Assembly: GCA_964354585.1 (NCBI GenBank)
Contig: CAYHAI010000052.1
Location: forward strand, 6,283 to 70,282
Direction: 5' to 3'
From: an uncultured Planctomycetales bacterium
GTDB taxonomy: Bacteria > Omnitrophota > Gorgyraeia > Gygaellales > Profunditerraquicolaceae
Length of the DNA: 64,000 nucleotides
Below the pieces are notes generated by a model. The model did no database searches. It saw nothing but the letters and a program-made list of their open reading frames with translations, and was not told where the DNA came from. This document shows, piece after piece, positions 21,001-53,679 of this stretch (position 1 is its first letter; every line of letters begins with the position of its first letter). The translations under genes and the position numbers were made by a program.

Positions 21001-24000
21001 TATTTAATATCTCGCCGGCAATTTCTCTTTTTACCTGCGCAATACTCTGCAACAAGAAATCTACATCTTCTTGTGAAACTACCATCGGAAACATCACTGC
21101 GATTTTGTGTCTTTCGCTCTCTATATTAGCCCTCATCAGAGCCCTTAATTGGGTAAGGAATATATCCTTGCCTTCGTCGCTTAATCTATAAAATGCTACG
21201 CCTTCCAATTTCTTTTCGTTTCTAATCCAGGGAAGCCCTTTATCCGGATCTTTGGAGGGGTCTACTACATCTAAGGTGCGCATCACAATTATTCCAGCCG
21301 CAGCATTAGCTAAAGTTAAATAAATACCTTCCTGGTAATTTTCTGCTGGCACTGCGGTTAAATTGAAAAATGACTTTATGGCTTCTGTCCTGCATAACCC
21401 CACATCAAGCAACAGGCCCTTACTTAAATCTACTTCTTCTTTCTGATTTGCGTTTATCTTAAAGTTTACCTTAACCCCATCTTTTGTTTTTACTGGCTGC
21501 TCTCTCTGGGTAACAGTATATTCTTCCAAAGCCCTCAGCTGTGTATCCAGCGTTTTGCTTTCTTCTAAAGTTTTGGTGCTCGGATTTAAGATTACTTCGC
21601 CGCTTAAGCCGTTGACTACGGCGTATTCACCCTCACGCACCAAGCTAAACCAGTTTATCTCTTCTGCGCTGTCTTCTACGCTGGGATGAGTAATTACTAA
21701 GTAACCAGCCTCTTTGGCAAAAATAACCCAGTGCTCGGCAACCGAAGCCTTATCTACTACAAAGGCAAGCACGTCTTCGTAAGTACCCACAATGCGGTAG
21801 TAGTCGCCAATATCCATATCTCTGGCAAAAATTATTGCCTTTCCTCGAGGCGCCCTGTCTCTTAAGAAATCTTCTACTATATAATCAATTATTTCTACTG
21901 CTATGTCATTTATGCGTTCTTTTACCTCGGGATCTACTCTTGCGTGGGAAATATATTCTGCAGCCCCATCCCTGATTAATTCTTCTGCCTCTTTAAACCT
22001 AAACTTTGTTTCTGCGGATGCCCAGTAACCTTTGTATTCATCTAAATAATTCCTTAAAATAGGAGGAATTTGTTCGGCTATCTGGTTGATAAAACTCTTT
22101 ACTTTATCATCAACGCTAACCCCTGCATCTATCCGCTGCCTTATTTTTTCTATTACATTATTAAACCGCCTAATCTCATCATCTATCTTTTGTTGGGCTA
22201 ATTCTAATCTATCTCCAGATAAAATTAAACTATTGTTGCGGCTCAATCTCAACTCTATCATTACCCGCTTTAAGGCCTTATTCATCTCAAGCACATTATC
22301 TCTAAATCTGCCTGCCGGCATTTTAGCGGCACCTTCGTAATTCTCATCTATCCTATGCAGTAGAATATGCTCTGCAGTGCTGGGGTCAATATGTCCTTCA
22401 ATCGCTTTAACAATATTTTTCTTTTCGTATAAAACAACACCCATCAATGCCCCTACGCGAGTAGCTGCTTCCTTATGCTTTTTGTGTTCTAAAGTTAGCT
22501 GGGTTGTCTTTAATCTTGCTATTTCTTTCCTAAACACAGTTCTTGCTCTTAATATTTCTTTGTGTATTAATTCCTCTCTTGCGTCTTTCGGTATATCCTG
22601 AAATGGTAAAATTTTATTGCGCCGTTCGATGCGCGTAAATAGCGCCTGCTCCAACTTATCAATATCTATCCACTTGTGTGTGTCGGCGCTAAATATATCG
22701 GCAAATACCTGCGCTTGCGTATCGTTTACGAGTGTAGCATCAATCTCTTTTTTCTTAAGCTCGGTAAATACCCTCTCTATGGCTGCTTCCGCATTAACCT
22801 TCTCTGCTAAGATAACCTTATCTATTCTCTTCTTAAGATAATCAATGATTATCAATGTATTAATGCCCACCAATCCTTGATCTACCTGAGGCTTAATAAT
22901 ACCCTTAAGATAATCCAGGGCTTCTTCCGCAAAGACTTGCTCATTGCGGACCAAGAGCGCTAACTCATTTTCTTTTAAGCCAGGTATGTTTAAGGCATAG
23001 AATAACGTTGTGTGGCTCTCAGGAAGGCTGGGTTTTACCGCAATGGGAGCTGCAGGCACTCTCAAGCCTAAAGTACTCAATCCTCTTAGCCTTATTTCTC
23101 CAGCCAAGCCCAAAAGCCCCAAGCTGGCAAGGCAAACCCCATCCGCGCCCTGCCCCAGCCCACAAACCAAAGCCACCACAACCGCAGCCACCACCACTCC
23201 CGCCCCCACCATTGCCACCAGCGCGCCAACAACCTGCCTGCTGGTGATGCCGGAAGGAGACTGACAGGCAAGATGTTCTCTTTGCCTCGCCCTTAAAATA
23301 GGAGCAAGTGCTTTTAAGATTCCAGATTGTCCTGCCTCTTCTAAAGCCCAAATTGCTGTGCTGTGCAAATCTGAAGGGAGTTGATCATTTTCTACAATCG
23401 CCTTTAAAATAGAACCAAGCTCTTGCTCTCGTAAAATTCTAAATTGTTTTGTGATTCTTAAGGCCTCAATTGCTGCTTGGCATAAATCTGGATGGAGTTG
23501 GTAATTTTCTACAATCGTCTTTAAAGTAAAACCAAGCGCTCTTAAGATTCCAAATTGTTTTGCGGCTATTAAAGCCAAAATTGCTTTTTGGCGCGAATCT
23601 GGAGAGAGTTGGTCATCTTTTGCGTATGCTTTTAAGGTCTTAAATCCTCCTGCGTTCTCTGAAGCCCAAGTTGCCGCTTGGCGCAAATCTGAATGGAGCT
23701 GGTTATTGTTTTCGCATACTATTAAGGTCTTAACGTAGCTTTTGACAACGGCTCGCCTCATTAAATATACCACCCCCGCCGCAGCTAATATATAAGGTAA
23801 GGCCTCTGGCTGCTTTACTGCTAAAGCAATGCCTGCACCCACAAGCCCAACTACTGCCATGGCAAGTATAGTCTCAGGCAGGGTAAAGCCGGATTTGCGG
23901 CGGTCGCTATGAGAACGGCGGCTACGGTCATCATGTCTAATTCTGCTTTTTATTTTTTGCCGATAGCGTAAGTATAAATATAATCCTACAAAAAATACCA

Positions 24001-27000
24001 CAACTATTCCAGCAACTAAAAAAGGATGCGATAGGAAGCCCCTAAGAATACGCCATCCGATATACTGTTCTGTTGAATCAAGCCACATTGCAATTAAAAT
24101 AACGCCTGGAGCTAACAGGATTAAACTTACTATAGATAATAAATTCCGAAGTCTACTTCTCTTTGGAAACAGGTAACTTATCGCTTTCAGTGCTCCAGCA
24201 AGTGAACCCATTATAAGAGATACCTTGAGCACAGCAATAATGATACTGCCTCCCTGTGATGCGGCATAATCGCCTTGCCCGCTGACTGTCCCTGTCGCTC
24301 CCCAAGCCAAGTCAGCCAAGAATAAGACGAAAGCAATAGGAAGGAAGGAGAAAGTCATTCCACTAGGAAGAATAGTAGGACGTTTCCAGAAATCGTCCAT
24401 ACTAGCTTCTTTTCTTCTTGCTAGTGCCTGCGCCTCTTTGAATTTTCTCACTAACCAGCTGATACCTCTGGCTATCTTTATCACGCCAGTGCCTACTATT
24501 GCCATCACCGCACCCACGGCTCGCCGCAGACGGGTGACTGATGACTGATGTCCAGTTTTATTCAGAAGAATACCCTTACGAATAATACGGAGCAGATAAG
24601 TCAAGTAAGCCAATCTTCTCTTTTCTCTTCTATTGCCACTTTCCACTACCCAACCAATATTTAACACCAAATTGCGCGACTCTAACTCAGGCTTTGTCAA
24701 TAAGTGAGGAATGTCTGTCCATATCACTTCCCAACCCGTACTATTTTCAAACTTCTTTATTATTCTTAATAAACGAGAATCCAATCTGACCTTATGCGGA
24801 TTCTTAATATATTCACAAGCAATACTTGAAACAGTAACGCCATCTATAAACTCTTTTATATGTTGTCTACAAAGAACAAAGAGCCAAAAGGGAATATTTA
24901 CTAAAGCCAGTCCGTTTAGAAAGGGAAAAGCGCTATTATTATTTAATGCACTAATAAGATTAGTATAAATGCCCCATATTCCAAAAGTGCCTAAAAGTAC
25001 AAGCAAGATACCGTGGTCTAAAGCAGACAGCGGGACACGAGGTAGGTTATCATCTTCCCGGAACCAGATGTGCTTAAACGCCCGCCTTATTGAAACCAAG
25101 GGTACTGATAATTTATCTGTATTGATAAACTCTAATTTAACTGCCTTTGCCACAGGATCTTTACGCTCCACCGATATCTGCTTCATGGCCTGATAGGTCT
25201 TAGCTCCTTTATAAATCTTATAAATTCCGTAAATTGATATCGTCAATTCAACACCCACAACCACTAATGCCGCTGCTGCAAAGAAAATCCATATATAAGA
25301 TGGATATCGAACCAGTGGCGCTAAAATAGCTCCTAAATAACCCAAGACAAATCCTATCCCTAGAGCTACTAGTGCCATACTAGCTAATAATAAGATAGGT
25401 CTTATGAGGAGTCTGTATTTCGAAATAAATTTATTCGAATTAAGCTGTATCCCATTCTCTCCTACTCCGCCAAGCAGTGGAACCGTAGCCGCCAGAGCTG
25501 TTGCAGCAGCAAAATTGGGGCTGGTTGTCTTGGTCAATAAAACCCCTGCCAAAACTACTGCGCCAATAGCCAACACACCCGCCACCACCGCACCCACGGC
25601 TCGCCGAACTAAACCTAACACACTGCGTAGGTGCGATAGGATTTTAGTTGTGCGAGCCGTTGATCTTATACACAGGTATATGATTGTTGCGAGCAGCAGT
25701 GATACGAGCAATAATGGTGTCGCGGTCGCTGCCAAATAACTGCTCCCAAGAGTCAGCCCGGCCATTTCTGGTATAAACGTTGCCCGTAACTTGGTGAACA
25801 AGAAACAGACGCATATGACCGTTACCATTTTCCCGAGCAGCCGCAAAAACTGTGGAATCTTTGACGAACTCAACGATGTGGTCGAATTCCAAGACAGCAT
25901 AATTGATCTTAACCATGGTATCCTCCTTTGTTTAGTTGTACCAAGGGAACTCTCGGGGGTCAGTCTCCGGAGGTATTGGAGCCGAGAGCCCCTTGATAAC
26001 AACAAAGCCGCAATAACTGCTATTCCTGCCACGGAAGGAGCAATTAGCGGCTGGATTAAAGTTCTAATTTTTTCTTTGAGTTTTTGAATTAAGGAAGTTA
26101 ATTTGGCGGGGATATTATTGAAGACAAAAAGGTCGCCTTGCGCTTTTTTAGCGGGCGGACTGAGATCGTTGAAGGTTTGTCCAGGCCTTTGTGGAAGAAT
26201 TCGCTTAGTAAGACGTATTATGGCCTCAATAAATTTAGGTATAATTAATTTTATTCTTCCGCCTAAACCTGCTAAACCTTGATTTGTACCACTTGCACTC
26301 TGGGCACCCTGGCCTTCTCTTACATTTTCTGCAGGTAGACCACTTACACCTCGGGCACCTTGCCCATCTTCACCTTTTCGCACCGCGTAGGTGCGATAGG
26401 TTACTATTGCAATTAGGGCAACTGCAACTACTGCTACTAAGATTATTGTAGCAATTACAATTGCGTATGGTAAAACATTGCTAATATTTGTCTGCGCGCT
26501 TATGTCTGCCAATTGACTGCCTGCGTATGCGCGAAACGCAGCAGTCCCAAAAATACCACCCGGCCCACGCACAGACGGACCCCCGGTCTGCGTCCAATGA
26601 AGATGCATTAGTACACCCATCACTCCCGTGGCTAGTGAGGAAAATCCTGCTACTACTCCTAATACTGGAATCTCTATAAATGCAGTCCCATTATTGCCGC
26701 CTGTATTATTAGCGCCATTATCCTGCCGACTGCCTGAATTCTGGCTGTTCATCGGCTGCTGGCGAGATGGCTGATGATTATCTGATATGGGCTGGTTTTG
26801 CTCCTGAGTGGAATTTAAGTTACTTCTACCGTTAACTATACTCATTAATAAATCTTCGGGAAGCTGAGGCAATCTGCTGACCGCCCTGCTTAACGGACGG
26901 ACCACATCTGCATAGAGATTCCTCTCTTCGATAGGCACTAACATCCCTTGTTTATTAAGCCGTGGCTCAAACCCATCTTTCTGCTTCAATCTCTGCTCAA

Positions 27001-30000
27001 TATCCCAAGCTAACTTTCTTGCTTCCCACCACTTCCTTACGCCTCTTAATTCCCCGTTGCCTGTGCCGTTATTGGCAGCCTCAATAGCCTCAAAAAGTTG
27101 CTGCACAAATCTGGTGCGCTCTCGGCGCGAAGAGCCATTATTGAGGCCGCGGGCTATCTCTTCCAAACCTGTGCCCTGCAAATTTCCGTTTGAGGACAAT
27201 ATATAAGGTAAGAGCTCTCTGGCTTGCCCAACTACACTGTCTTTGCCACTTGTTTTAAGAATGTCTCTGATAATAGACGGTGTATCCTCAGAGGTCCGGA
27301 TTGGCGATTCTGCTGGCTTTTCAGCCGACGCCGGCTGCTGGGCTAGATCGGATGGGGTGATATCAGCTTCTCCAGAAGGCGCTTTAGAATAATGGTTTAC
27401 ATAATAGTGCTTTTCTTTGGTTTTATCCACCTTTGCCCAACCCTCATTTGTCAGGGTAGTTAAATCACTATTAACAGTGGAGCGGCTGAAATTGTCTTGG
27501 AATTCATCCGCTACTAATTGCATAGCTTCTGTAACGGTAAGCATTCCTCTTTGCTCTATTTGTTCCTTTAAGAACGCTCTTCTTTCTTGCTGGGTTGCCC
27601 TGTGAGTTCTGGTAGGTGTTTCGGCTGGCTGCGGCTCAACCTGCTTGGTTGAGGCTGACTGCTTTCCCTCTGGCGCCGATGTTTCCTTTTGGGCTACTAC
27701 GGTTTCATCCGGCTTGGCTTCTTGCGCCTGCGCTTGGGCGGGAGCTCGGGCTTCGGCTAATTGCCTTTGTGCCGAAGAGACAATACTATAAATTTCAAGT
27801 TGGGGATTGAAAACTTTAGCGGCGTATTGAACAATAAGAGGAGATTCTGAATTTATTACTGTGGCTTTTTCTTTTTCGAGCTCTTGTTTCCTGGCTTGAG
27901 CAAGTTCAATGATTTTCTTAGCAATGGCCTTTTCTTCTGCTTCTAATTTACTCCTATCTATTTGCGGCTCTGGAATAATATTTTCTTCCTGCCTTGCTGC
28001 TTGGGCTTTTAGACGCTGCTCGTATGCTTCCTTGATTGCTTTTTCTCTCACTAAAACTCGTTGGGCCAAAGCGCCTGTTCCATCAACCACCGGCTGCTCA
28101 TCAATTATAACTTGCTCTAAGACCTTTATGGTATCATCTATAGAAGAAATACGCTGTTCAATCTTTTTCTGCAACGCACTTTCTTCTCCACCTATAGCTA
28201 TAAGCACAAGCTTATCCAATAAGTTATCTGCCGTTACGTCTTTAGTGGCAGAGGCATTAGCAACCTTCTTTAAATTATCGGCGTTTACGCCTTCCTTAGG
28301 CTCAAGACCTTTTTTCTCCAGTTTTTTCAATTCTTTTTCAACTCTTTTTTCTATCTTCTTCCATTTTTCCTCTTCAGACTTATCCTGCGATGGACTAATT
28401 AGCTGATAAATTAATGCCTGTGAGCCCGTAGAAGCCCTTTCTAAGCGGCTCATTAATTTAGCTGCCTTGCCTACAGGGCCTTTACCCCTTAGAGCAACTA
28501 TATCCGCTAAAGAAAAACCTCTTTCTTGAGCTACGACCAACATTTCCGTTAACGTAACTTTAGCGCTTTGTGCATCCGAAAGTAATCCGCTACCTACTGA
28601 CAATGCATCATTTATTGCCTTTAACTTTTCAGTCTGCTCCGGCGTTATCGGCAGCACAAAAGGAACTAACTCCATAGGCTCAACATTCCATTTTTCAGTT
28701 CCCGGCTGCTTGCCGAAGGCTTCTATGGCATTATATAAATCGAGACGGGAAGGCAATGCTTTAGCTAAAGCTTTTTTGGCTATAGCATCAGCTTCTTCTT
28801 GGGTGCGAGCCTGTCGCAGTTTTGTATAAGCATCTCTAATTTTACCATTCACTAATCCCTGCAATGCCTTTGCCTGTTCAGGATATTTCTCTGCCATCAC
28901 GCCTAAGACTAAATCTGTGATCGCCAAAACATCGCCGCTACGCTGTTTCTCAGTAAATTGCGCCAGCGGAATCTGGGGCAACGCTTCACCTTTCGCCTGC
29001 GCAGCTGCTGCAAAAGGCTGCACAACCTGACCTAAAGTCATTAAAGAATTTAAATCTCGGTGCATGGTATCAGTGGATTTAATTAAACCTTGGCTAGTCA
29101 GATTCTGCAAGGTATCAAACGCTTGTTGATTAGTTAAACCCTGTCCTTGAGGTAACGCACTAGCTAACCCTAAAGATACTAAACCGTTATTAATTGCGGT
29201 CCTTATCGCTGGGTTGGAATTGGTTAAAGTATTAAGAGTTGGCAAGAGAAGAGAATCTAGATACAAAGCTCCTGAACCCGGATCGGAATATCCTTTTTCT
29301 CTTAACCAGTCAGCGCTTGTAGCAGGAATACCTTTTGATGCTGCTATATCTTTATCAGTTATTGGCTCATAAAAAGGCTTGCCCAATTCTTTACGCGTAT
29401 CTGCTGCTGCTCTCGCATCTACCAAGCCTGGTTCAATATAACGCGGTGTATATGAAGGTAATTCTTCTGCGCCATATTTGCTGCGCGCATCCTTTAATTC
29501 GGCTGGAGCGCGAGCACGACCTAAAGCAACGCTGCCTCTTGTAATGCTATCCCCTTGCAACTCTGCTATAAATTCACGAGTTGCAGTGTTATCAGCATTA
29601 ACAACTCTATCTATTCTTCCGCCTTGCCGAGTATTTTCTCTTATCCGAGTTATGGACCTTTCTATTGTCCTATCAACTGCATCGTTGGCATTGCCTACAT
29701 CTCCCCTTAAATTAGTATTAATATAATCTCTATCTGCGCTCCTCTTTTCCGCTAGGATTTCTTCTATAACTTTTGCCGCTTCAGGAGCTAATTGTTTTAT
29801 ACGCAAATATGCATCTTCCTCCGTTCTCATTGCATTATCAGTAATATCGGTATAGTTACGCTGTTTATTGATCTCAATTTGATTCGCCTCAAGAGTATCG
29901 GCAGTTGCTCCGTCAACAAGCTCTATTCTTCTTGAAACTTCGTCTCCTTTTGTATAATCTGGTTTGCCTTCGCTATCAACTGTTGCGGTACGCAGCCTAA

Positions 30001-33000
30001 CCGTGGATTGTTTTGTAGGCACTGTTAGTGATGCCCCATCACCCAAACTTACAATATCTGAACCTTTTGATCCGAATAAACTGGTGCTTCTTACATAACC
30101 ATGGGAAATAAGAACGACCGTATTCGAACCTTCTGTTAACATTCTACTCAGCTCTGCTTCGGGGTTAGCCTTTGTATCACATAAAGGAGTACGAACGCCG
30201 TCCTTTACAAGAAAATACTCTCCTTTAGGATTAATAACGACCACTCTAAAGTTGGATTCCCCAGCTGCTTTGTCAACAGATTGCGTTACTTTGTCAAAAG
30301 GAGCTTCCCTAGCAACAATAGGAATTACTCTGTTATGACTTTCGCTAGCCGCCTCTTTTACTAATTGGGCTGCTCTTTCAGGAACAGAGCCAGAAACTGA
30401 GGTAACGTTATCTTTGCCTAACGTAATATCCGGAATCTCGCCTACAGCGTCGGCTCCGATTACGCGGCTTTCTCTTAAGGCTTCCGCTTTCGTTATTGTT
30501 CCGGAAGTTAAAGTGAGACTCTTAAGCCCTGCATCAAAGAGGGCATTCACGGTTTGTTCATTTATAACTCTTTTTGCTTCTGATTGTGATTCTATTTCAT
30601 CTGCTCTTGCTGCTCTAACATCTAAGCGACTTAATTCAACCGCTTTTTCTTTCCCAACAAGAGCATAAGCAATAGCTTTTAATGGATCGTGCGGTCTTAC
30701 TCTATGGGCAATTCCAGTTTCTAAATCAAGCGGGATTCCTTGACCATTAGAATCTATGTAATAATTCACGCCGTCGATTTCTACACGCACTTCTCCATTG
30801 GCTAATAAAGCCTGGATTCTACCTCTTCCTTCACGAGTTGAAAGTTGTTCTTCTAAGCTTTTACCTCCCAATTCAGTTAAGATTTGCTTGGTTAAATCCT
30901 GGTTAAAATGCGTAACCTTTACTCCCTGTCCGTCAATTATTCTCTCCGTTTCAATATTCATTGACCCTAAAGATGTCGCCGTGGGAGAACCCAGGGTTTT
31001 GCTTAATTGAACGTTTGCATCCTGGCCTATTTTGTAATCTTTTGAATCTATTGTCTTATGAGCTTGCTCTCCAACTAACAAGCCGGGATTTTTCTCTAAT
31101 TCAGGATTCCAACCTCGACGGTCTTCTGCAAGAATTTTTAAAGCATCTCTATTTGTGGCGGTCAATAAATCTAAATCTTCTATAGGCACAATACCAAAAC
31201 GGGCGTCTTTTGAAGCCTCAATAGATCCGGGCATTTGAGTAGAAGCGATTTTAACATCCTTAGGGTCAATCCCCAACTTTACAAGGTTATCGTAGGTACT
31301 CTCAGCCTGTCTGTCAGATCTAATAGGGATAAGGATACGTCCACTTTCTCCCTCTGCCTGTAAAAGTCTGCTATATAACTCCAATAATATTGAGTCTTTT
31401 CCTGACCCCAAGCCGGCTAATAATAATCTGATATCGCTTTCTGGCCGTCTACTCGGATGCTCCTTAACAAGTTGCTCTACTCTAATTATTGCATCAATTT
31501 GGCCTTCATTAATTGCTCTGGTAATTCCTATATTATTTAAAATATTGGCCGCTCTATCGCCAATCCGTCCTCTTAATTCAATACCGCTCTCCAGCCCGAA
31601 TTTACCCTCGGCAAATATCGGTGGACCTTCTCTTACAATCAGCACTGTGCCGGCGGGTTGGGCGATGCGTCTGAGTTCCGCAATTACTCCCTGACCAAAA
31701 GTATCATTAGTCCCTAGAACTTGCGCCACCTGGCTTAACACATCTACATCTGCAGTGGCTAACTCACCCAACTTCAAACCCATAATTTCTTTCACTGCTT
31801 TATCTTGGCCATTTTCTACGATACGGTTTGCGGCAATAACCTCCGCAATGCGCGCGACTTTCCCTTGCCCATCTATGCCGCCTAATATATCACGTTTATT
31901 GAAGCCCGCTGCTGCTAACCGTGCGTCATAATAAGCTATATTTCCTATCTTTATTGTCGGAGCATTTATTTTGGCTTCTAATCCATTTATAGAAACCGCA
32001 ATCGGATTTCCCGCGGCTAATTGTTTCGCCTGTTCTTTTGCGCCTGGTATATTCGAATTATAAACTGTCAATCTGTCAATCTGTGCTACAGGAAACAAAA
32101 GACCGTTTTTAGTTTTTAGATTCGGGACGCTGATAGGAGCAATTTCTTTACCGCGGATATAATTCCATAAACCTTTAATGCCCTGGTCTCTATATACTAA
32201 CCTTGATGCCTGAATAAAAGGCACTCTGCCTAAAGCTGTTTTATCAAGGGCTAAATAAGAAACATAAGCAGGAAGGCGGACTAAAGCCGCGAGGCCAATC
32301 TCATCAAGACCTATACTTACGGTTCCTGAGTTGTCTATTACTGCCTCCGTACCATCAATTAACTGGCGGTCGGCTACAAAAGTCTTGCGTCTGCGATAAG
32401 CCAGACCACTAAGCAGTTCTTCCAAATATGTGCCGGGGAAAGTAGGTGAGGTATTAGATAAAGGAATTGATGTATTCGCGGTTTGCTTGCCTTGCTGGGC
32501 GAGTTGGAGTTTCTGATTGGCTTGGGACATCTGTTTATAGATACCTTTGCCAGAGGTTAAGGCATCTTGGGCAAATTCGCTGGCGACATCTAAGATTTCC
32601 GTAGCCTGTTGTTTAGCAAGTGCTTGGGTTTGGAGTTTCTGATCAGCGGCTTGGAAGGTCTGATAAGTGGTTTTGGCTTCATTGAATAAGTTCTTACTAA
32701 AATCAGCTGCTAGGTTAGTTATTTCAGTGGCTTGTTGTTTAGCCTGTAATCTCTCGTTACCAAATTTCATTGTATCATAGAGGCCAGTTAGATCAGATTT
32801 AACCTTTCCTAAGGCATCTTGGCCTAATTGAGTAAATTGAGCAACGGTTTGCTTGCCTTCTTGAGTGAGTTGGAGTTTCTGATTGGCCTGTTCTATACCT
32901 TGATAAATGGTCCTGCCATAATCTAAAGCGCCTCTACCCAGTTGGGCTACATAATTAATGGTCTCTTTTGCCTGTTGGATTCTCTCGATATCCATTACCC

Positions 33001-36000
33001 GGATTTCTTCGGCAGCTAAGAGAGTTTTGCCAAGGGAATTTTCGGAGAGAACTCGGCTATTGTCTAAAGCAATCTGGCTAATACGTTCGTTCTCTTTGTC
33101 TAAGAGTTCCTTTCCAGATATCTCTTCGCTGGTTAATCTTTGCTGGTTGAGTTCAGCTTGGAGAGCACGATTTTCTTCAACTGTATAGAGGGTCTTGCCA
33201 AAATCAGCTTCGGATATCTCACGGGCTTGATTTAAGGCAACCTGCTGCTGGTAATTTTGCTGGGCAGTCTGCATCGTATCATAAAGACCGCTTAAATTAG
33301 ATTTAATCTCTTTAAAGGTATCTCTACTTAATTGGGCAATTTGCTGGAGGTTTTGTTTGCCTTCTTGAACTATGGCGTTAACTCGGATATCCTCTTGCTG
33401 GTTCATAGCGATGCCAAAATCTTGCTCACCTTGCATTCTCTCAATACCTAGTGTGCGGATTTCCTCTTGGGCTAAGAGAGTTTTGCCTGCGTCGGTTTCA
33501 GATATTTGGCGGTCGCGATTAAAACCAAGTTGGATTTGGTAATCTTTATTGGCGGTTTGGAATGTATTATAAAGACTGGTTAAGTCAGATTTAATATTTC
33601 CTAAGGTATTTTGACCAAGCTGAGCAAATTGAGTAAGGGTTTGCTTACCTTGCTGGGCGAGTTGGATTTTCTGATGAGCTTGATACACATCTCCATAGAT
33701 TCCCCTACCGGATTCAACTACGCCTTTAGCAAATTCACCTGCCACATTTAAAATCTCGGTTGCTTGTTCTTTGGCTTGGAGTCTCTGGTTGGCCTGCTCC
33801 ATACCTTGATAAATAGCTCTGCCATAATCTAAGGCGCCTTTACCTAATTGGCCAAGAGAGCCAATGGTACTGGTGAATTCTTGTTTGGCTTGCCCAGCGG
33901 CTTTAGTTAAATCTGGCTGAGCAGTGGCTAGAGGAGTTTCCACAAAAGGAGTAGGTAGTGCTTTAGTAACTGCTGGAGATTGAGCAAGAGGAGCAGTTAA
34001 GTTAGAAGTAGGTGCAAAATTCTCTAACCACTCAGAGCTAAGTTCTTGATAAGGAATAAGACTAGAAGCATTTACTGATTGCTGTGTTTGGACTGACGGC
34101 GATACAACTGAAGAGGCAGTAGCTTGTGGCACAGTAACGCTCGGTTGGGTAACGGACTGAGCTGCTATTTGCACCTCCGGCTGCCAGTTACCGGTTTCTC
34201 TTGTGGGCATGTTAGTCACTAAATCTCCACCTAAAAATGCCTCAAGTGCCTTTGCGGTTATTTTTAATTGTTTAGTATCATCCTGCCTATTACTGACCAG
34301 GGAGCCATCCGAGTATTCTTTGGGGATACCTATTAAATTAGTAGCTATCCAATCGCTGCTGGTATATCCCCACGTCTGAGCTTTGTTGGTAACTCCAGGA
34401 ATAGGTAAAACAGGTGTTGGTGCATCAGAAACCACATTTTGTTTCGGTGTAGATGTTGTAGTATTAGGAACTGGGGTGCGCGCGGAAACGTCCTTGGGAG
34501 CCTGCGTTAGTTTATTTAGTTCTGATTGCACTGCAGATTCAACCGGCGACAATCCTCCTTGCCCTGCTCCTTTACCAACCCAAACAGCTGCTGGCGGCGT
34601 CAAATCTTTTCCTGTGGCGCGAACCTCACGTGCCTCACGCGCCAAACTGACAAGAAGCGCGGTTGAAAGAATAATTACTTTTGCAGAGCCTGTAAACTTA
34701 CTCCAAATTCTACTCCCAAGAGACGGTTTAGAAGAAGGCGGCGTAGATTTTTGTGGCGTGGATGAAAGAGGAACGCGTGAAGAAGCAACGTCGCTCAGTT
34801 GTATCTTAAAATCAGTTTCTGCCGCTTTAGAAGTAACGGCAGCACGCTGCGCTTCTATCGCCTCCATCGATTTATCAACCTGTGCTGTAATCAATGGATT
34901 GATCTCCTGAGCTGTTACTCCTTTCCGTAACGGCAGTACTGGACGGACTGTATTAGGCTGATCTCCTCTTTCCCATAACCGGCCTGCGGGATCTGTATAT
35001 CTACCTTCTGCGCCTGTAGGCGTAAGAGGTATTATCTCGCCATTAATATCGATCTGAATCTGAGATTTGGTAGCAGGGAACCATGCAGGGTGATTATTTA
35101 TAAACTTTTCTCTAATGCTTTGTATAGGAATTGTTTTTACTACAAAATTACCGTACGCCTTTTTAGCCGATAGAGATACAGAATCACCATTAATAAGTGC
35201 CTTGCTCCCTCTTGCTAGCGAAAATACGACATTAAGGATTGCATTTGGGAGCAGCAAAACTGTACTTGTAACACTAGAATAAGCCCTGACTGCGCCGCTG
35301 TCAAAAGCTCTTGTAGCTGTAGTCCGCTCAAAGCCCGCTCCTTTCCTCAACCCACCCATTAACCAAAGGTTGGTCAGAAAATAACCCAAGCCCTGGACCG
35401 GCTTATCACCTCTTGCACTTCCGGTAATATTATTCCTGCTGTTACCCGGGTCAACATATTGAGCGAATCTTTCGCCTAACCACTGTTTAGCAACATCAGA
35501 AGCCGCTCCTTGATAAAAATGATCTTTGGCGTAAGAAGGGGCTACGGGACTGACTAAACCGTATAGTAACGCCTCTCCCAAGGAAACATAATAACTGGCT
35601 ACTCCCCAGGCAGACTCTACAGAACCTTGCACTACACCATCCCGGGACATCTTGTATGCCGCATCATAAGGAAAAGAAGCAAAACCCGTTGTTGTCTGTA
35701 AAATATTTGCCGGTACCCCCAGGAAAGGCCTCTGTCCCATATTTTGTAAAATAGCAGAGCTTTGCGTCTCAAGTCCGGGGATTACGCGGCTTGCTTTAGC
35801 CATCCCTTTCTCATCGCCAATGAGATAGGAAAAGATATAAGTAAACTTGGCACCCATTGCCCTAAGATTATCTCCTAAAGCCATCAGCGGATTACTGGAA
35901 TTTACCGGCGCCAATACTCCCTGGCCGATATAATCGTAGTTCTCCACATCTCCTTCTGTCATCGCATCATAAAGGTGCTTGCCTGCATATCCGCCATACA

Positions 36001-39000
36001 ATCCGTAACGCGGAACTACTTCTGTAGTAACCAAACGGCCGATTGACCAAAGATTTGCTAAAAAGTATGCCTTATAAGATTTATCAAGCGCATTTGCCGC
36101 AAGCAGACCATCTTTACCTAATTTTGCTCCCGCACCAACCGCTTCAAGCCCCTTACCTGCTGCGGCGGCTGGCCTTAAAAGTTTTATGGCTGAACTTCCT
36201 ATTGCTACTATGCCTACTGCATCCCAAAAAGATGCTGAGGCCATATCGCCATCTGTCCATGAAGCTGCGGCTTCTAAATTCTTAACGGTGCCGAGGACAG
36301 GAATGAGAGATAGACAAAACTGACGGCCGCCATACATGAAGTTATCAAATCCCGAAGTATCTTTTCTTATATCAGATAAATCTCTCTGTAAATCTAACCA
36401 ATTATATTCGCCGCTGGTTAATCTATTACCCACATCTTCTCTGGCCTGAGCATTAAGAATAAGATTGTGTACCCCCAAACGCTCAAGCAGCACGCGGTCT
36501 GCAAAACCACTACCCTTACCTGCACGGGTAAAACTTCTCGCTATCCAGTCAGAATTATTGTCGGAACGTAAAGTTGTAGCGTCTTTTAACCAAGGACTAT
36601 CCCCTGCCCCTTTCATTTTTTCTTCCCAAGCCTGAAGAGTCAGTTTTCCTGAAGAGCCGCGTTTCAGATGCACAAAAAATGCCGTATCAGAATTAAGTCC
36701 GGTTACAGGGCAAGAGATTGATTCTATTTCGGTTTCTATGGTGGATTTTTTAACGGCATTCTTTAAGTTCAGCACAAGAAGATCGGCGAAACTCTTTGCC
36801 TTAAGCTGTTGGGCTATAGGATCAGCATTAGGGTCAGGTAATAAGATTGTTCTTTCCTGTTCGCTAGTCTTCATACTTCCCACTTCTTTGCCTTCATAAA
36901 ATAAGCCCCATTCTTTCTCTTTACGTCCCCCTGTCCTTTCTCTTATTTCAATACCATTTCCTTGCAACCATTGCCTTACATCCCAATAGCCAGAACCAGT
37001 CAACCCCGATGAATCAAAAGGTGTATTTTCTGTCACTTTTAACCAAATTGGCAGATTTTTTCTACCTACTTCAACCAACTTCAATCTCCCATCCGCCAGG
37101 GTTTCATAAATATTGCCTATACGCTCATCCTTAAATTTAACACCAGGTAGAATTTGTTGCTGACCCAGGTCATCTATTTTAACTGAATATTCTTCTACTG
37201 GTTTTAAAACAGTGCCGTCTTGTAATTTTAAATCTTGCTTACTAATACCATTTATTCCCTCGCCGTCAAGAGAAACCATTCCCAGGGGAGCGGCGTGATC
37301 AAATCTCACAGAGCTATCATAGACCTTAAAGTCTTTAGCAAAGCTTACGGCGAGATTTCTATCTGCGGGTACACTATGTATCGCATTATCAACATAAAGG
37401 GCCTGGTTACCAAAACCAATGAAGTTGCCTTGTTTATCCAGATTTAATTCAGATAGGAGCTTGCCGCTGGACTGAGTAATGCCTTCGCCTGCAGCAGTGC
37501 TTATGACATCTACGCCGCCGGGCTTAACCTCTAAGAATGAAGATATGTGTTCTCCCGGGGTTAATTCCCCATCACCACCAAATTGCCTCTGGGATAGAAT
37601 CTCACCCTTGGCCATTAAAGCAGGCACAAACTGTTGAGATTCTAATTGGCGCCCTATAATCTTATTATCTGGGCCAACAATGAGTTTTTCCTGACCCAGC
37701 CATAACTCACCGAATCCTAATATCTGGGCTTCTCGAGGTAAAACTACTACCGCGTCTGTTGTTTTCCAGGTCTTGATGGTTCCGGTCACCTGGCTGCCCA
37801 GCAAATCAGTTACCCATTCCTGCTCGGTTTTTCCCGCAGGAATTGTGCCATCGGTGGTAAGATGCAGCTTGATATTCTCCAGAGAGGCTTCGCCGCGCAA
37901 AGGACCGCTGGTATCTTTTATTTGGTTGGTTTTTTCATCAAATGTTCTATCCAAAGGAATCTTTAAATTACCTACAGTCCTTACTGCCTCAGCAGGGCCT
38001 TCGGTTCTGAAGCCCATGGGTTGGGTATGGTTAAAGATAAATGTGCCGCCGCCAAATCTAATCTCTTTAGCAAAGCTGACTAACTGAGTATCATTCAAGT
38101 TTGCAGCAATATTTTTATCATAACTGGCAGCAGTAAATTGAGATTTACCTTCGACTTTGTGTCTGGCATTGTCGGCAGTGATTAGAGAATTATCCAATCC
38201 GCTGATTTTAATATTGTTTCCTACTGTCTCAATATTTATCGGCAATGGCACTTCACCAGTAGACTTAATAATAATTCCATCTCCAAACAATGCAGAAGAT
38301 TTTAAATCAACTGCGCCTTTATCTACTGCTATAGGAGTGCCACTACTCTGCGGGTTATCTAATAAATTAGCTGGATGTATCCACCAGGTTTCGGGAAAGA
38401 TTAATGCCAATTGCTGAGAGGTTCTATCTTCTTCCGGTTTAGAAGCAGACATCCACCCCCACATTGTCTCGGGAAAGATTATTCCTAATAGCGGATCGGT
38501 TTTGTCTTGTTGTGTAACAGTATATAATTTTGTGCCTGAAGAACGTGATGTGCTGGCTTGAGTTTTATCATTATGCCTGGCGAATAAATCCTGGCTGGCT
38601 TCAACCTCTAAACCAGTATCCCACTTTTTGAAATTTAATCCTTCTGCTTGAGCAGCTAAAACACTATTTAATTTATTGATTGTGTAATCCCGCTTTAAAT
38701 AATTATCATCAACCCCCATTGCTTCCTGGGTAATCTTAAGCGGTTCTTCTATCAAGCCTCTTCTGATTTGTGTTTCATTTGTGGTTCCGTCAAAGTTCTG
38801 AATGGTAGCGCCTGTTTCTTTATCTGTCAAAATTCTCGAGACAAGGTTACCGCTTGTTATTTTTGATTTACTGATTGTTGTATCCGCACCAACTAATAAC
38901 GTTGTGCCAGCTACCCCAGCCAAAGATGAAGCCGTAATTTTTCCTGCCTCATCTGTGGCAAGCTGGATTGGTAATTGTGTCCCTTGGGTTAATTTTACTA

Positions 39001-42000
39001 AACCGGGCTGCAAAAATTCTTTATCCGCTGCTGCCACTAATTTATAAGTATCGTCTTTAAACCTAACGGATTTCTGTTGATTTTCATTCTTTAGAGTCTC
39101 GGAGATTGTTGATGGAATATAAGCCTTCTCTAATGGCGCGGCTTGATGAATAATGCCTTGCTTATCATCTCTGACACTGGCCACCACTCCCCATTGTTCG
39201 CCTTGAGACCACAAATCGTCTATGGGTGCAGTATGCCTATAACTTATTAAACCACTATCTAATTTACTTCGCTGGGCATCAACCAAGGAATTAAATATTT
39301 CGTATCCCTTTGCTGGCGGTTGAGTTTTTGTAAGAATCTCTAATCCTTTCTCCGGACTATAGCGTCGCCCCAAAGAAAAGGTAACATCCGCCACGCCATT
39401 CTGCACATGAGTAACTGGAGCAATAACTGTTTGCAATCTTGTATCCCGGATATGGAAAGGCAACGTTCCATCATTATTTTTAAGATAAATCCAGTCTTCT
39501 CTACTTTCTAAATTAAATCCGCCGCCTCTTATCTCTACCCCGGGCAAATTGCGCACTATGTTGGTACCAATTGTCACATCATCCACCGCGCCCCAATACC
39601 GGGTGCCTTCGCCTAAAACGTTTTCGCCTAAAAATCTTCCTTCTGAAACAGCAAAATGAAGACCGAGAACGCCTTCTGTCTGGGTAACGGTTCCGCCTGG
39701 TTTTACTCCGCTAATCGTGGGAGTGGTAACCTGATATCCATTATTATTCTGCTCTATCCATACTTTACTTCCAGTATTATAAAGGTAGGCAAAAGGATCA
39801 ACTAAGCCTGGATTGGATCCGTGATTTAGCGGTAAAGGATCTTGAACAAAACTAATACTTTGACCATCGGGTAATCTAACTCCTATATTATCGCCAGCAG
39901 CAACGAATTGTGTACCTTTCATCCTTAAACCACCTAATTCGACATAACTTTTTTCGGCATTAAAGCTAGGAGAATTTAATATATCGCTTTCGCGTATTAA
40001 GCGCAGACCATTGGGCAAGGGATCGGTTAAGGAGAAATGCGTCCAGGTATCCTTGGTGTGCGGCTGTAAATGAACTTCGCCTCTTTTCTCGCTTATCTGA
40101 ATGGAATAATCTACGCTACCCTTAATGCTCGCGCCAGATCCTGTCATTCCCTCGGCGTTAAAAAACATTGCTTTGGTTAAACCGGTAGTCGAATCTGGAC
40201 TCGTAATAAAAACTCCTGTGCCTTTATCCAATTTCACAGCACGGTTATACGGAGTAGTCGCACTTTCCTCTTTTGCCAAGAGCATCGAACCAGGAGCCAA
40301 GGAAAGATGCGCATCAGGACTGATATAGCTACCCATTTTTGTCGTATCTTCGAATAAATGACCCGTATAAGTAATTTGACCGCTACCTATTAACCTGTTA
40401 TCAGTAATGATCTGTGCGGCTCTGAGCGTATCATAACTTTTACCTTCATTATTTTTAATTGCCGTTACAGTCCGTGTCTCAGGGATAAAATCAAACATGT
40501 CTTTGGAGGAAGGCGTTTGTTCAATTTGTTGACTGCCATTTTTATTTTCTATTAGCAAGTTGCTTAAGTTGCTTTCAAAATTTTGACCTTGGGTTTGAAC
40601 TACCGCAAAAGCAAAAGGCGTAGGCTTAATATGGTCGGGCAATAATTTAGAGGTGAGTTCTTGTTTAGCTCCTTGAACCAGCTCAAAAGCAACTGCCCTA
40701 GTTAAAAGTCGGGGAGTAAGATTATCTAAGCCGATGTACACCGTACCTGTGCCTTTAGCTGTATCAACCACAGATTGTTTACCTGTTGAGCTAACTACCT
40801 TAGCGGCTATATCCGCCTCTAGCAATCTGATATAAAATCCAGCTACATCTGAATTTGCCGCACCAATAGTAGTGGGTTCGCCGTTAGTATAACCTATCCA
40901 AAATTTGCCATTAATCTGGGCTTGCTTTAAGACATTCTGTTGAGAGTAATCCAAAATTGCGTGCTCTTTTCTAATAAAGGTGGGGCCTTCAAAATTATCC
41001 CTTCTCAGGGTAAAACTTGAATCACTGTTCCAGGCTACCTTATCATAGAAGCCGTAAGTGTCTCTACTGCCGCCGGGATTACTAAATAAATACGCCTTGT
41101 TTCCGGGAAGAAGCGCAACTTCTTTTCCTTTTGAGAAATCAGGCGTTTGCCCCTGTATTTTGGTGATGTCAAAAGTTTGCCTGATGCTCCATAATCCGTT
41201 GTTTGTATCCTCATTTAGGTTGACGCTTATAGTAACGCCGTCTCTGGTAGTCCCCTCTCTTCCCCAGGCAACCCAAGCTCCGTTTAATTTTTCTTGAGCC
41301 AAAGGTAACTTATGCGCACGAAATGCTAAGATTCTTAACTCATCTGCATCTTCTGGAGAAACCTTGTCTTTAAAGAATTCGTAAACATAACCACCGTGCC
41401 TGGTATTCGCATCTCCTACCACGGCTATTCCGGCATTATAGAGGGCATTTGTATCATACGGAAAAATATTGCCACTGTGCAAATCTACCATTGAGCTATT
41501 GCGTAGTGCTTCTTGTGTTAAGTAACTCTTCGCCAAAGGAAGGGCATTTTTTGTAACTTCTCCTAATGTTAGTTTTTCCCATCCTGATTCTTTTAAAAAT
41601 TTATCTCCTGCGGCCTGAGTTTCAGCATCAAATTCTCCTTTTACTCCAACCCATACTTCAGGCATGGAAGTATCGCTAGAATAATTTGTCTCCGCTATTT
41701 TACTTATAATTTTCAGGGCTTGAGGGTTAATCTGGTTTGCGGTTGATGTTATATCCACCCATTCCCCTGCTGCCTTTGCTGCATTTACCGCGCTACCAAT
41801 TTTATTGCTAGAATCCCAATTATTTTTTAACCAATTGGAAGCAGATTGAATAGGATTAGAATCCCAAACATATGGTTGTTTGGATCCATTTATATTCTTA
41901 ACAACATCCTTGAATTCTCCTTGGAAATGATTTTCTGCATCATATTTACCCAAAGCATAATAGTTAACTTGGGTATTGGGTGCTGGAGGATTACTTACTA

Positions 42001-44764: not shown

Positions 44765-44824
44765 TTTCTCTTACCTATATAAAAAGGGAAAAGCAAAGTT
44801 TCCCCCTTACCCCCACCACTGATT

Positions 44825-44849
44825 TCACGGATTTTTTAATCACGGATTT
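44825..44849. promoter_or_regulatory. Two direct copies of TCACGGATTT (15 bp start-to-start) within the near-palindrome TGATTTCACGGATTT...TCACGGATTTCACTG, about 60-85 bp upstream of the giant-gene ATG
   Basis: Seen directly on the plus strand at 44825-44834 and 44840-44849. Spacing and symmetry suggest a transcription-factor operator. Confidence 0.3.
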
Positions 44850-44902
44850 CACTGTGTTAGTTCCTTTTATAAACTCTTTGTAAAACTTCTTAATAAGACC
44901 TT

Positions 44903-44956
44903 AAATAAAAACCGGATTGTCAAATACTGACTTTCCCGTCGGTATTCGGCAACCCG
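44903..44956 (-). terminator. Intrinsic-terminator-like hairpin + U-tract in the leader of the giant gene (possible riboswitch expression platform)
   Basis: On the minus strand CCGGGUUGCC...26-nt loop...GACAAUCCGG (10-bp stem with one mismatch and one G-U) is followed by UUUUUAUUU (plus 44903-44911). Confidence 0.4.
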
Positions 44957-44959
44957 GCT

Positions 44960-45075
44960 GTCTCTTGCTGTTCGACTCTTCGCTTGCGCTCAGAGTCAAT
45001 TGCTCACTTCGTTCGCAATTGAGATCCGTGGCTTTGTGCCCCCCGATCACTCGGGGTTTACCCTTTCGTTCCGTG
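44960..45075 (-). ncRNA. Structured 5' leader element, candidate riboswitch (GEMM / c-di-GMP-I-like motifs)
   Basis: Minus-strand RNA GGGUAAACC-[CCCCGA GUGA UCGGGG hairpin with GNRA loop]-GGCACAAAGCCACGG-[UCAAUUGC...GCAAUUGA hairpin]. This resembles the GEMM-I consensus GGGCAAACC-GNRA hairpin-GGACGCAAAGCC-hairpin as I remember it. It lies about 15 nt after the predicted TSS. Confidence 0.3.
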
Positions 45076-45099
45076 GCTTTCTATCTTATTTACGTTCAA

Positions 45100-45129
45100 A
45101 GTATAACATATAAAAAATATCTCTGTCAA
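45100..45129 (-). promoter_or_regulatory. Sigma70-type promoter for the giant gene: TTGACA-18 nt-TATACT
   Basis: Minus-strand -35 TTGACA (plus 45124-45129) and -10 TATACT (plus 45100-45105). The TSS is predicted near 45092. The promoter sits between the tad-operon terminator hairpin and the structured leader. Confidence 0.5.
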
Positions 45130-45246
45130 GTAAAATTTTACCCTAAAAGAGAGCGCTTCCTTTACGCTTACCTATTGAATTTTATAAAGTTCTAACTCTG
45201 ATATGGAACCGATAATTTGACTTAAATTATGCTTATTTTAAGAGTA

Positions 45247-45272
45247 GGTCGGGTTTAAACCCGACCTACTAC
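45247..45272 (-). terminator. Perfect 10-bp GC-rich hairpin (GTAGGTCGGG-TTTAAA-CCCGACCTAC) downstream of tadC. Likely a tad-operon terminator and insulator from the giant-gene promoter.
   Basis: A perfect inverted repeat seen directly, with flanking A/T-rich runs on both sides. Confidence 0.45.
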
Positions 45273-45462: not shown

Positions 45463-46338
45463 TTATTGTCCTAAACCATTGAGCAAGCCGCCTTGCATAA
45501 AATTCAGTAAAATTGGCCCACCCACAATAATGGCAATTACTGGCAATATACAAAAAATTAACGGGATGAGTATCTTTATCGGCGCCTGCAGGGCAATCCG
45601 TTCTCCGCGGTGATAACGCTGTAAGCGCGAATCCTCGGAAAGAATGGCAAAGGCATCTGCCACTGGCGTGCCCATCCTCTCTGCCTGGGCAAGCGTATGC
45701 ACAAAAGAGCTTATCTCCAGTATATTTAATCTTTTAGACATATCTTTGAGGGCTTGGCTGCGGGGCTTGCCCCATTTTATCTCTTCCAGCACAAAGGAAA
45801 ATTCTTCAATGATCGGGCTAGGAGGTAACTTCTCAATAATCCACTTTAAAGCGCTATTAAAATCTAGGCCTGCTTCCACGCACAGGCCGATTAAATCTAC
45901 GGTCTCCGGCAGGTAGCGCACAATTATAAATCTGCGCTTGGCAATCTTGCGGTTGAGGATAATCTCCGGGATAAAATAACCCAAGAGCAGGCACAAAACC
46001 AAAACCCAAGCCTCTAATCTTCCCAAGGCAAAATAGGCGGCAATGGGCAGCAAAATCATCAATAATACTTTCAAATTGAAAAATCCAGCGGCAGTCATTT
46101 TCACATGGGCGGCATCCAGCCTGCGCTTTATGCGCACATCCAGCCCTAATTTCTCTAAGAAAGCGCGGCTAAAAGGAATGAGGTAAGAAAAATAAGAGGG
46201 CGCCTTGGGTTTCTTTAATTGCTCCGCTTGTGGCTCATTCTCCTGAATTTTAATGCTCAGCGGCGAACCATAGCCGGCAAGCCCCAGAGAAATTAAAGCC
46301 CCGGCAGCAATCACTAAAAGAAAAATTAATAAAGCCAT
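45463..46338 (-). CDS. tadC: Tad pilus inner-membrane platform protein TadC (T2SS-F domain)
   Basis: 291-aa ORF with a GspF/T2SSF-like repeat and TM segments. Its position is last in the tad cluster. Confidence 0.8.
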   Translation of the reverse strand: MALLIFLLVIAAGALISLGLAGYGSPLSIKIQENEPQAEQLKKPKAPSYFSYLIPFSRAFLEKLGLDVRIKRRLDAAHVKMTAAGFFNLKVLLMILLPIAAYFALGRLEAWVLVLCLLLGYFIPEIILNRKIAKRRFIIVRYLPETVDLIGLCVEAGLDFNSALKWIIEKLPPSPIIEEFSFVLEEIKWGKPRSQALKDMSKRLNILEISSFVHTLAQAERMGTPVADAFAILSEDSRLQRYHRGERIALQAPIKILIPLIFCILPVIAIIVGGPILLNFMQGGLLNGLGQ

Positions 46339-46350
46339 CTACTTCTCCTT

Positions 46351-47235: not shown

Positions 47236-47367
47236 AACTATCTGCTGCCTGGCGCCATTTGCCGCAAAGCGAGCGCTTTAAATATACGGACATCCCAATT
47301 AACGCCGCCGCAATGATGGCTATTAAGACCGCGAACTCTAATGCCGAAAAACCGCGTTTAAGACTTC

Positions 47368-47838
47368 TCATTCAGCGCCCTTCCATTGCAGGGAAACCAA
47401 TTTCTTCTTCCCCAATTTAGAAACCGTAAATAATAATGTTTTATTATAACCCGAATAATCGCAAGCCACAACTACTTCTGCGCCCTGTTGAGCATAAAGC
47501 CGCCAATGAGTGAATGATTTTAATTCTGCCTTGACGCGGCTAAAACCCACAGAAAAACTCTTGATAAATGCCTGGCGATAAGCGGATTTTTCTTTTTCAT
47601 TAGGCAGGCCATTATAAGTTGCGCCTACGTCCATTCCCACGGCTTTAAAATTCTCCCAATCAATAAATTTTTCTGCAGGGGCTGAGCCCTTAACCAAATG
47701 CGTAAATACAGCGCGGCAAAAATTAATCTCTTGATTTTTGACCTGTAAGAAAAAGGCAAGGGCAACCATTATTACTACCAGCAAAATTATGTATTCTAAA
47801 ATTGGTTGATTATTTCTCATTCTGTCTTGTCTAAGCAC
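47368..47838 (-). CDS. TadE-like pseudopilin (class III signal, QPILEY)
   Basis: N-terminus MLRQDRMRNNQPILEYIILLVVIMVALAFF fits the TadE/Flp prepilin-like pattern. Confidence 0.5.
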   Translation of the reverse strand: MLRQDRMRNNQPILEYIILLVVIMVALAFFLQVKNQEINFCRAVFTHLVKGSAPAEKFIDWENFKAVGMDVGATYNGLPNEKEKSAYRQAFIKSFSVGFSRVKAELKSFTHWRLYAQQGAEVVVACDYSGYNKTLLFTVSKLGKKKLVSLQWKGAE

Positions 47839-52243: not shown

Positions 52244-52282
52244 TTGGCTTCACCTCCTAAATTTACTTTGCTCTGTTTACTT

Positions 52283-52639: not shown

Positions 52640-52654
52640 CTCCTATCCCTTGTT

Positions 52655-53020: not shown

Positions 53021-53069
53021 TTTTCTTTCACCTCCTCAACCGCTCTTGCTTAAGAGTTCCCTTATTCTT

Positions 53070-53435: not shown

Positions 53436-53484
53436 ATTTTCACCTCCTAAATTATTCACCTGTTCCGCTGCCACCTGACTAAGG

Positions 53485-53664: not shown

Positions 53665-53679
53665 ATCAGCTTCACCCCC

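Follow-up and report, generated by a model that had tools for sequence, protein, structure and literature searches.

A probable c-di-GMP-responsive transcriptional ON switch ahead of an Omnitrophota giant gene

The stretch of DNA considered here, hereafter the window, comprises 64 kb of contig CAYHAI010000052.1 from an uncultured bacterium of the phylum Omnitrophota, and its minus strand carries the 5′ part of a giant gene that begins with an ATG at 44764, continues without a stop to window base 2 (2..44764; at least 14,921 codons) and then runs off the window. The leader of this gene appears to contain a class I riboswitch for cyclic dimeric guanosine monophosphate (c-di-GMP), and we put the probability that it is a transcriptional ON switch for the giant gene at roughly 0.8. 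The ON direction is deduced from the architecture of the leader, in which a predicted aptamer and an intrinsic terminator share one RNA strand. All coordinates below are those of the window and refer to the minus strand unless stated otherwise.

In the proposed mechanism, transcription would start at a conserved strong promoter, at about 45093, and the nascent RNA would fold into a GEMM-I aptamer with helices P1, P2 and P3. The strand GCCGGGUUGCCGAAUA, which forms the 3′ side of both P3 and P1, would double as the 5′ arm of a long terminator hairpin with UUUUUAUUU after it. When c-di-GMP is absent, the downstream arm UAUUUGACAAUCCGG would invade the aptamer, the more stable terminator would form and the polymerase would stop at about 44905, roughly 140 nucleotides (nt) 5′ of the ATG. 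When c-di-GMP is bound, P1 and P3 would be locked, the terminator could not nucleate and transcription would read through into the gene of more than 45 kb. Kinetic control would be the simplest reading of such a switch.

Aptamer and overlapping terminator

A sequence-only reading of the leader had likened it to the GEMM-I consensus from the order of its parts, a GNRA hairpin and a second hairpin, and had suggested an Infernal search. When the whole window was scanned with all 4,227 Rfam models, two matches passed their thresholds, one a transfer RNA (tRNA) and the other RF01051 (c-di-GMP-I), which confirmed that likeness. The RF01051 match at 45072-44945 (-) scored 57.8 bits against a gathering threshold of 35 bits (E 1.1e-8 for the whole window) and covered all 87 model positions (1-87), the tip of the second helix being extended by an insertion of 46 nt. 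A permissive Rfam scan of the leader alone (E up to 10) returned other families at chance level only. The RNA reads, in order, GGGUAAACC, the hairpin CCCCGA-GUGA-UCGGGG, GGCACAAAGCCACGG and the second helix. Judged by its sequence, the leader element is a genuine class I c-di-GMP riboswitch aptamer, and it presumably binds c-di-GMP.

The aptamer occupies 44940..45073 (-), as defined by the RF01051 match, by pair counts on 44 aligned leaders (the window and its homologs) and by key bases. P1 pairs 45073-45067 with 44948-44940, in a register that was set by hand and varies between loci; P2 lies at 45061-45036 and is closed by the GNRA loop GUGA (45050-45047); and P3 pairs 45033-45023 with 44962-44951. 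Through the model alignment, the positions that we take to be the ligand contacts in the numbering of the Vc2 structure fall on G20 = 45062, A47 = 45035 and C92 = 44949. The tip of P3 is a variable insertion at 44963..45022 (-), which holds the 46-nt Rfam insertion and is predicted by folding to add two hairpins, AAUUGC..GCAAUU and GACUCU..GCAA..AGAGUC, that would turn the tip into a three-way junction. This region varies in length and sequence among the homologs, whose total spans range from 76 to 142 nt. One of the window's tip hairpins is capped by GCAA with flanking G-A/A-G, and two other loci (L044 and L046) have similarly long P3 tips with the wording GAGCAAG(U/C)GAG, both scoring above threshold. 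The comparison suggests that the three-way junction is specific to a sub-lineage.

Compared with the reference members of RF01051 (Sudarsan et al., 2008), for which Vc2 is the structural reference, the window shares the two-hairpin aptamer, the GNRA loop on the first hairpin, the junction GGYAAAC...GCRCAAAGCC...AGCCGGGYUGCCGAA, the canonical G20/A47/C92 and a score above threshold. It differs in a P3 without the 11-nt tetraloop-receptor motif, in the 46-nt two-hairpin insertion at the P3 tip, and in a host (Omnitrophota) and a target gene (more than 14,900 codons) that are apparently undescribed for the class in the literature searched.

Homologs were collected by scanning one genome per species with the first 500 residues of the giant protein, which gave 52 loci, nearly all of them in metagenome-assembled genomes of Omnitrophota. 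A match to the GEMM-I clan at the gathering threshold was found in 43 of these loci, always on the gene strand. The distance from this clan match to the coding match downstream is 126-315 nt in 40 of them and 1.3-3.6 kb in three. The earlier suggestion of a second-messenger switch on the giant gene is supported by this recurrence at the same position. Of the nine loci without a clan match, L029, L030 and L049 have too little upstream DNA and L039 has a different context; the other five are taken up below. The 44 leaders were aligned with MAFFT without structural information. Over this alignment, G20 is present in 43 leaders, A47 in 44 and C92 in 43, and 95.1% of the pair cells in the aptamer helices are standard pairs (30-46% in slid controls). 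Changes on both sides of a pair occur in 97 cells against 25.6 in shuffles, and seven pairs show such two-sided change. The lack of any conserved leader structure in relatives, which the sequence-only reading had named as grounds for abandoning it, is thus not what the alignment displays. By helix, the first hairpin (P2/P1a) is paired in 100% of cells with tetraloops that read GNRA, and seven of the eight P2 pairs show two-sided change; the eighth, the outermost G-C, is invariant. In the P3/P1b helix (AGCC-A-CGGRUC with GAY-AG-CCGGGYU), 98% of cells are paired; of the ten pairs, seven never change and two vary on one side only.

The expression platform is an intrinsic terminator at 44903..44957 (-), recognised by folding and covariation, with a stem at 44957-44912 and the U-tract UUUUUAUUU at 44911-44903. 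Folding was needed to find it, the loop limit of the consensus scanner being too small to detect it. The stem is interrupted and contains 18 standard pairs (8+7+3), to which RNAfold adds a closing G-U, with an energy of -26.3 kcal/mol. A 10-bp hairpin followed by a U-tract had been proposed earlier as an OFF-state terminator; the hairpin and UUUUUAUUU are indeed there, and what had to be revised is the length of the stem and its extent, since the 5′ arm overlaps the aptamer. That arm, CCGGGUUG-CCGAAUA (44957-44942), coincides with the strand that forms the 3′ side of P3 and P1. Every homologous leader is built in the same way, and 37 of the 44 leaders pass a strict automated test; those that fail have a shorter outer stem, which is visible in their folds. 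As a platform, the element combines a stable G+C hairpin and U-tract with exclusivity towards the aptamer and with conservation.

In the structure-blind alignment, the terminator helix is 83.6% paired as against 22-44% in slid controls, and eight of its pairs are changed on both sides. Two columns are particularly informative. Column 173, which is shared with P3, forms G-U or G-C in the aptamer, and with its terminator partner it reads UA in 26 leaders and CG in 8. Column 175 holds the G that has no partner in the aptamer, and its sole covariation is with the terminator arm (GC 35, AU 4). Because these two columns covary with the terminator arm, both of the mutually exclusive structures are taken to be under selection. 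For the full leader, the terminator fold (-64.2 kcal/mol) is favoured over the fold with the aptamer enforced (-50.2 kcal/mol). In the nascent RNA without the 3′ arm, P3 is present in the minimum-energy fold. Since the 5′ arm of the terminator is the 3′ strand of the aptamer, aptamer and terminator would exclude each other, and c-di-GMP would therefore be an ON signal.

Many characterised c-di-GMP-I riboswitches, for example Cd1 and Vc2, are OFF switches, and the window has a second hairpin and a strong G-run resembling a Shine-Dalgarno sequence near the ribosome-binding site, at 44815-44784. An OFF switch, or an action on translation instead of transcription termination, could be imagined on this basis, but we consider it very unlikely. 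There is no separate antiterminator in the leader, and because the 5′ arm of the terminator is the 3′ strand of P3 and P1, a fold stabilised by ligand can only prevent termination. Moreover, the ribosome-binding site lies about 170 nt from the aptamer without conserved pairing to it, and RNAalifold finds 0 pairs between the terminator and the ATG.

The ON direction predicted for the window has an experimentally proven counterpart in Bc2, a c-di-GMP-I ON switch that acts by antitermination before the cap collagen-adhesin gene of Bacillus thuringiensis (PMC4933901). Both have a class I aptamer, an ON outcome through competition between terminator and antiterminator, and a large gene of the surface or adhesion type. 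Bc2 is validated and comes from a Firmicute, whereas the ON logic of the window is predicted; in the window, the aptamer's own 3′ strand forms the terminator arm and the leader contains extra conserved blocks.

Promoter, riboswitch loss and opposing evidence

The sigma-70-type promoter lies at 45100..45130 (-), with the -35 hexamer TTGACA at 45129-45124, an 18-nt spacer, a TG at 45108-45107 and the -10 hexamer TATACT at 45105-45100. As the sequence-only reading had noted, it is near consensus: TTGACA-18-TGtTATACT matches 11 of 12 consensus positions in a consensus scan and includes the extended -10 TG, and CTTGACA-N16-18-TATACT occurs once in the 64 kb against 0.02 expected. The promoter sits about 30 nt 5′ of the aptamer, so that transcription would start at about 45094-45092. 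Among the relatives, CTTGACA-N16-18-(TGT)TATACT at 10/12 or better is found in 41/41 leaders with enough upstream sequence, the end of the -10 lying 18-79 nt from the aptamer core. Both hexamers, a spacing within 16-19 nt and a position kept among relatives are accordingly observed. A transcription start downstream of the element had been named as a possible refutation of the sequence-only reading, and such a start is unlikely because a near-consensus promoter is kept 5′ of the aptamer in all 41 leaders. Between the terminator and the ATG of the window, no credible promoter was found by a consensus scan and by comparison with TTTACA/TATGAA.

Several observations count against a c-di-GMP-driven ON switch as set out above. 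The fold energies of the full leader come from a model that contains neither tertiary contacts nor ligand energy, so that the 14 kcal/mol gap between terminator and enforced aptamer shows only a default OFF state. P1 is short, its register differs among loci and it is 71% paired in the fixed register that was used. In the window, P3 carries one A-C mismatch as well as the 46-nt insertion. The aptamer has been lost in L004, L024, L031 and L041, and in L048 the first hairpin only, which implies that some lineages can do without the switch. In about half of the homologs, but not in the window, a weak promoter-like TTTACA-N17-19-TATGAA lies 3′ of the terminator. Finally, conserved blocks 3′ of the terminator mean that the riboswitch is not the sole control element.

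Some of these points could be taken to mean that the element in the window is a decaying relic, disabled by the P3 insertion and the A-C mismatch, with expression set by the promoter and the other leader blocks. Loss and partial-loss variants do occur naturally at related loci, and the window's 57.8 bits are near the low end of the family members (46.6-73.6 bits). We give this only a very slim chance. None of the ligand-contact and junction nucleotides has been altered, the terminator is strong and undamaged, and the insertion is placed at the P3 tip, which is variable in length in every homolog and where it folds as self-contained hairpins; furthermore, L044 and L046, with their similarly long P3 tips, still pass the threshold.

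The five loci with losses retain the promoter and the downstream blocks A and B described below. In L004 and L031 the aptamer is cleanly deleted, and in L024 and L041 short remnant hairpins stand before a T-tract. These loci provide ready-made comparison constructs.

The TTTACA...TATGAA motif below the terminator was also considered as a second sigma-70 promoter; it was rejected for the window and left as a weak candidate for some relatives. Its spacing falls into two classes (17-19 nt in 21 of 35 leaders, 24-28 nt in 13), and the final T of the TATGAA-type -10 is usually absent in the relatives. The corresponding site of the window has a 25-nt spacing and AGTGAA as its -10 (2/6).

Ligand specificity and sub-family

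In the leader-only scan, clan competition gave the best E-value to RF03167 (c-di-GMP-I-GGC), at 54.8 bits, and among the homologs it assigns 36 of the 43 aptamers, which have the canonical A47, to RF03167 (above 59 bits) and seven to RF01051. On the strength of these labels, the aptamer could be genuine and yet respond to another cyclic dinucleotide, such as 3′,3′-cyclic GMP-AMP (3′,3′-cGAMP) as in GEMM-Ib, or to some other ligand, as suspected for c-di-GMP-I-GGC; some GEMM-I RNAs with G20 are reportedly promiscuous for cGAMP. The signature bases make a different ligand very improbable. The window's 54.8 bits are below the RF03167 gathering score of 59. Comparison of the consensus lines of the two families shows a sole core difference, GACGC-G-AA in RF03167 as against GACGC-A-AA in RF01051, and the base after GACGC is invariably A, in the window as in all 44 leaders, the signature G being absent. 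This includes the best RF03167 scorers, L014 and L034, which have A opposite the model's G and a blank match line there. The A at position 20 that selects for cGAMP is likewise absent, with G in the window and in 43 of the 44 leaders. A GGC-variant or cGAMP specificity was rejected on these bases.

The window is best regarded as a canonical c-di-GMP-I aptamer because it has A at the position that separates RF03167 from RF01051. The label RF03167 reflects general sequence similarity and not the variant signature, since the top RF03167 scorers have A47. On the comparison of the consensus lines, GGC in the name would presumably stand for positions 20/47/92. With RF03167 the window shares the lack of a tetraloop receptor, modelled P1 pairs and the GGGGAC/AGCCGGGCUGCC wording, and it differs in having A47 where the model has G. 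Automated annotation as a GGC specificity variant could mislead ligand assignments.

A further comparison is offered by the GEMM-Ib riboswitches of Geobacter, which are mostly transcriptional ON switches before genes of surface or extracellular function and have the same fold as the window's aptamer. These 3′,3′-cGAMP riboswitches reportedly carry A at position 20, in contrast to the G of 43 of the 44 leaders here.

Genomic setting and the remaining leader

With tens of thousands of codons, the Archaeovorin-type giant genes of Omnitrophota rank among the longest known, and they are thought to mediate attachment to prey cells and their digestion. In the window, Pfam places a C39 peptidase-like domain at the N-terminus of the giant protein and PEP-utilising, LysM, M28 peptidase and GH2 domains further along, and homologs of the N-terminus are Omnitrophota proteins annotated as 'C39 domain-containing, partial'. 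A GGDEF domain, which would make self-feedback possible, was not found by Pfam in the visible 14,921 residues, the rest of the protein lying outside the window. West-Roberts et al. (2023; bioRxiv 10.1101/2023.11.21.568195) reported that most giant genes of Omnitrophota are followed by pilZ genes, that many encode internal GGDEF domains and that a secretion-like locus lies upstream. The gene in the window and its context match the Archaeovorin-type giant genes of that study. The presence of pilZ genes and GGDEF domains at such loci makes an ON switch biologically coherent. A riboswitch at giant genes is not mentioned by West-Roberts et al. (2023), in a 2026 preprint on complete Omnitrophota genomes or in the wider literature searched, and no regulation of giant genes is described in either of those two studies. 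The RNA class and the mechanism are already known; a c-di-GMP-I switch at the head of homologous giant genes across Omnitrophota represents a new setting for them.

If the switch operates as proposed, it would be a concrete and testable regulatory input for giant genes across the phylum, and a cell would pay for transcribing a gene of more than 45 kb only at high c-di-GMP. It would also tie the giant genes to the pilZ genes, the GGDEF domains and the Tad pilus operon that lies just upstream. The leader RNA is short and could be tested in vitro without culturing the organism.

Downstream of the terminator, two blocks are conserved in sequence only. Block A, CTTATTAAGAAGTTTTACAAAGAGTTTATAAA at 44866..44897 (-), lies directly 3′ of the U-tract and has the wording CTTAnTAAGAAGTTTTACAAAG..TTTATAAA in nearly all loci, those without the riboswitch included; it also contains a loose direct repeat, AAGnAGTTTTA / AAAGnnTTTAT. 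Block B, at 44771..44815 (-), consists of UGGGGGUAAGGGGG and AUAUAGGUAA with a spacer rich in pyrimidines between them. A single copy of its core GGGGTAAGGGG, invariably in the giant-gene leader, is present in each of 39 of the 52 loci, and the window likewise has only one; the layout of the block (GGGGTAAGGGG, a pyrimidine-rich run and then ATATAGGTAA) persists in the lineages that have lost the aptamer. RNAalifold found no conserved fold in this part of the leader, with 0 pairs in block A, -0.37 kcal/mol in block B and 0 pairs from the terminator to the ATG.

Within block B, UAAGGGGG has the look of a strong Shine-Dalgarno sequence and resembles the canonical sites that other genes of the window use. 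Its distance from the ATG is about 45 nt, and the proximal ribosome-binding site of the giant gene is a weak AGGU at about -13. In three loci, the core and G-run of block B stand 6-15 nt 5′ of what is likely to be the start codon of another gene, which encodes a secreted protein and is inserted between the riboswitch leader and the giant gene. These extra signal-peptide protein genes (L007 ~2870-3975, L008 ~2380-3437 and L026 ~560-3978) start just after the G-run of a block B that lacks its second half. A leader peptide following UAAGGGGG was considered and rejected, as no conserved start codon or reading frame could be seen by eye. Sigma-54 and sigma-28 promoter readings of blocks B and A were also set aside on inspection by eye, the key bases (TTGC and GCCGATAA) not being conserved.

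A tentative, and on balance unlikely, extension would place the riboswitch, as a single module, within a conserved control region of several parts that is specific to the giant genes of Omnitrophota and in which blocks A and B load an expression factor for the gene of more than 45 kb and the GGDEF domains and pilZ genes complete a positive-feedback circuit. The blocks could provide an ops-like site for a processive antiterminator of the NusG/RfaH type, the block B core matching 8 of 12 positions of what we take to be the Escherichia coli ops sequence, GGCGGTAGCGTG. They could also provide a standby ribosome site, namely UAAGGGGG. If this extension were true, the ON switch, the GGDEF domains in giant proteins and the pilZ genes would form a c-di-GMP positive feedback that commits the cell to its giant surface protein.

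Upstream of the promoter, a further conserved block, GGAAGCGCTCTCTTTT at 45145..45160 (-), has the consensus GAAARCGYT.YC.... and is aligned in most of the 41 leaders. It stands about 15-20 nt 5′ of the -35 hexamer, at the same distance in most loci, and is also retained in the riboswitch-less loci L004, L024 and L031; it may be a site for a transcription factor or activator, or an UP-like site. In the window, the consensus scanner flagged this block as terminator-like. A perfect 11-bp hairpin, AGTAGGTCGGG-TTTAAA-CCCGACCTACT, is found at 45242-45270, in the gap that separates the giant-gene promoter from the end of the tad operon, with a T-tract on its plus-strand side and a sub-threshold match to the L20 leader on the plus strand.

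The two direct repeats noticed before the ATG in the sequence-only reading are present as AAAUCCGUGA (-), which is TCACGGATTT on the plus strand, at 44825-44834 and 44840-44849, 15 nt apart. The word CACGGAU in the 5′ strand of P3 is complementary to them. They add little to the interpretation, being confined to one sub-lineage: near-exact copies occur only in L005 and its metagenomic twin L053, and a metagenome scan returned one contig, of the same lineage as L005.

The 8-mer AGCCACGG of the P3 5′ strand has copies at 45071-45078 and 45026-45033 (-) and occurs six times on the minus strand of the window and never on the plus strand. Fourteen loci have a copy of it in the 5′ flank of their aptamer, and seven have one close to the start codon or within the early coding region, against a background of 6 matches in the remaining ~360 kb on both strands. 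Near the start, it encodes K-P-R in at least four of the seven (L005, L006, L012 and L033). In pairing worked out by hand, the copy in the 5′ flank is predicted to be able to extend P1 in leaders of the window's type.

Directly upstream of the giant gene, on the same strand, 45463-63170 is occupied by a complete Tad/Flp pilus locus. Its genes include RcpC, a secretin, a CpaE-CpaF-like ATPase, a Flp-like pilin and TadG-like and TadB/TadC-like proteins, the ATPase at 57596-59752 being a fusion of CpaE-like and CpaF-like parts. Inserted in the locus are an IS200-type transposase at 56664-57146 (+) and an unannotated open reading frame of 587 residues at 54762-56525 (+). The tRNA gene (RF00005, 55.7 bits) is located at 63494-63568 (-), at the far end of the window.

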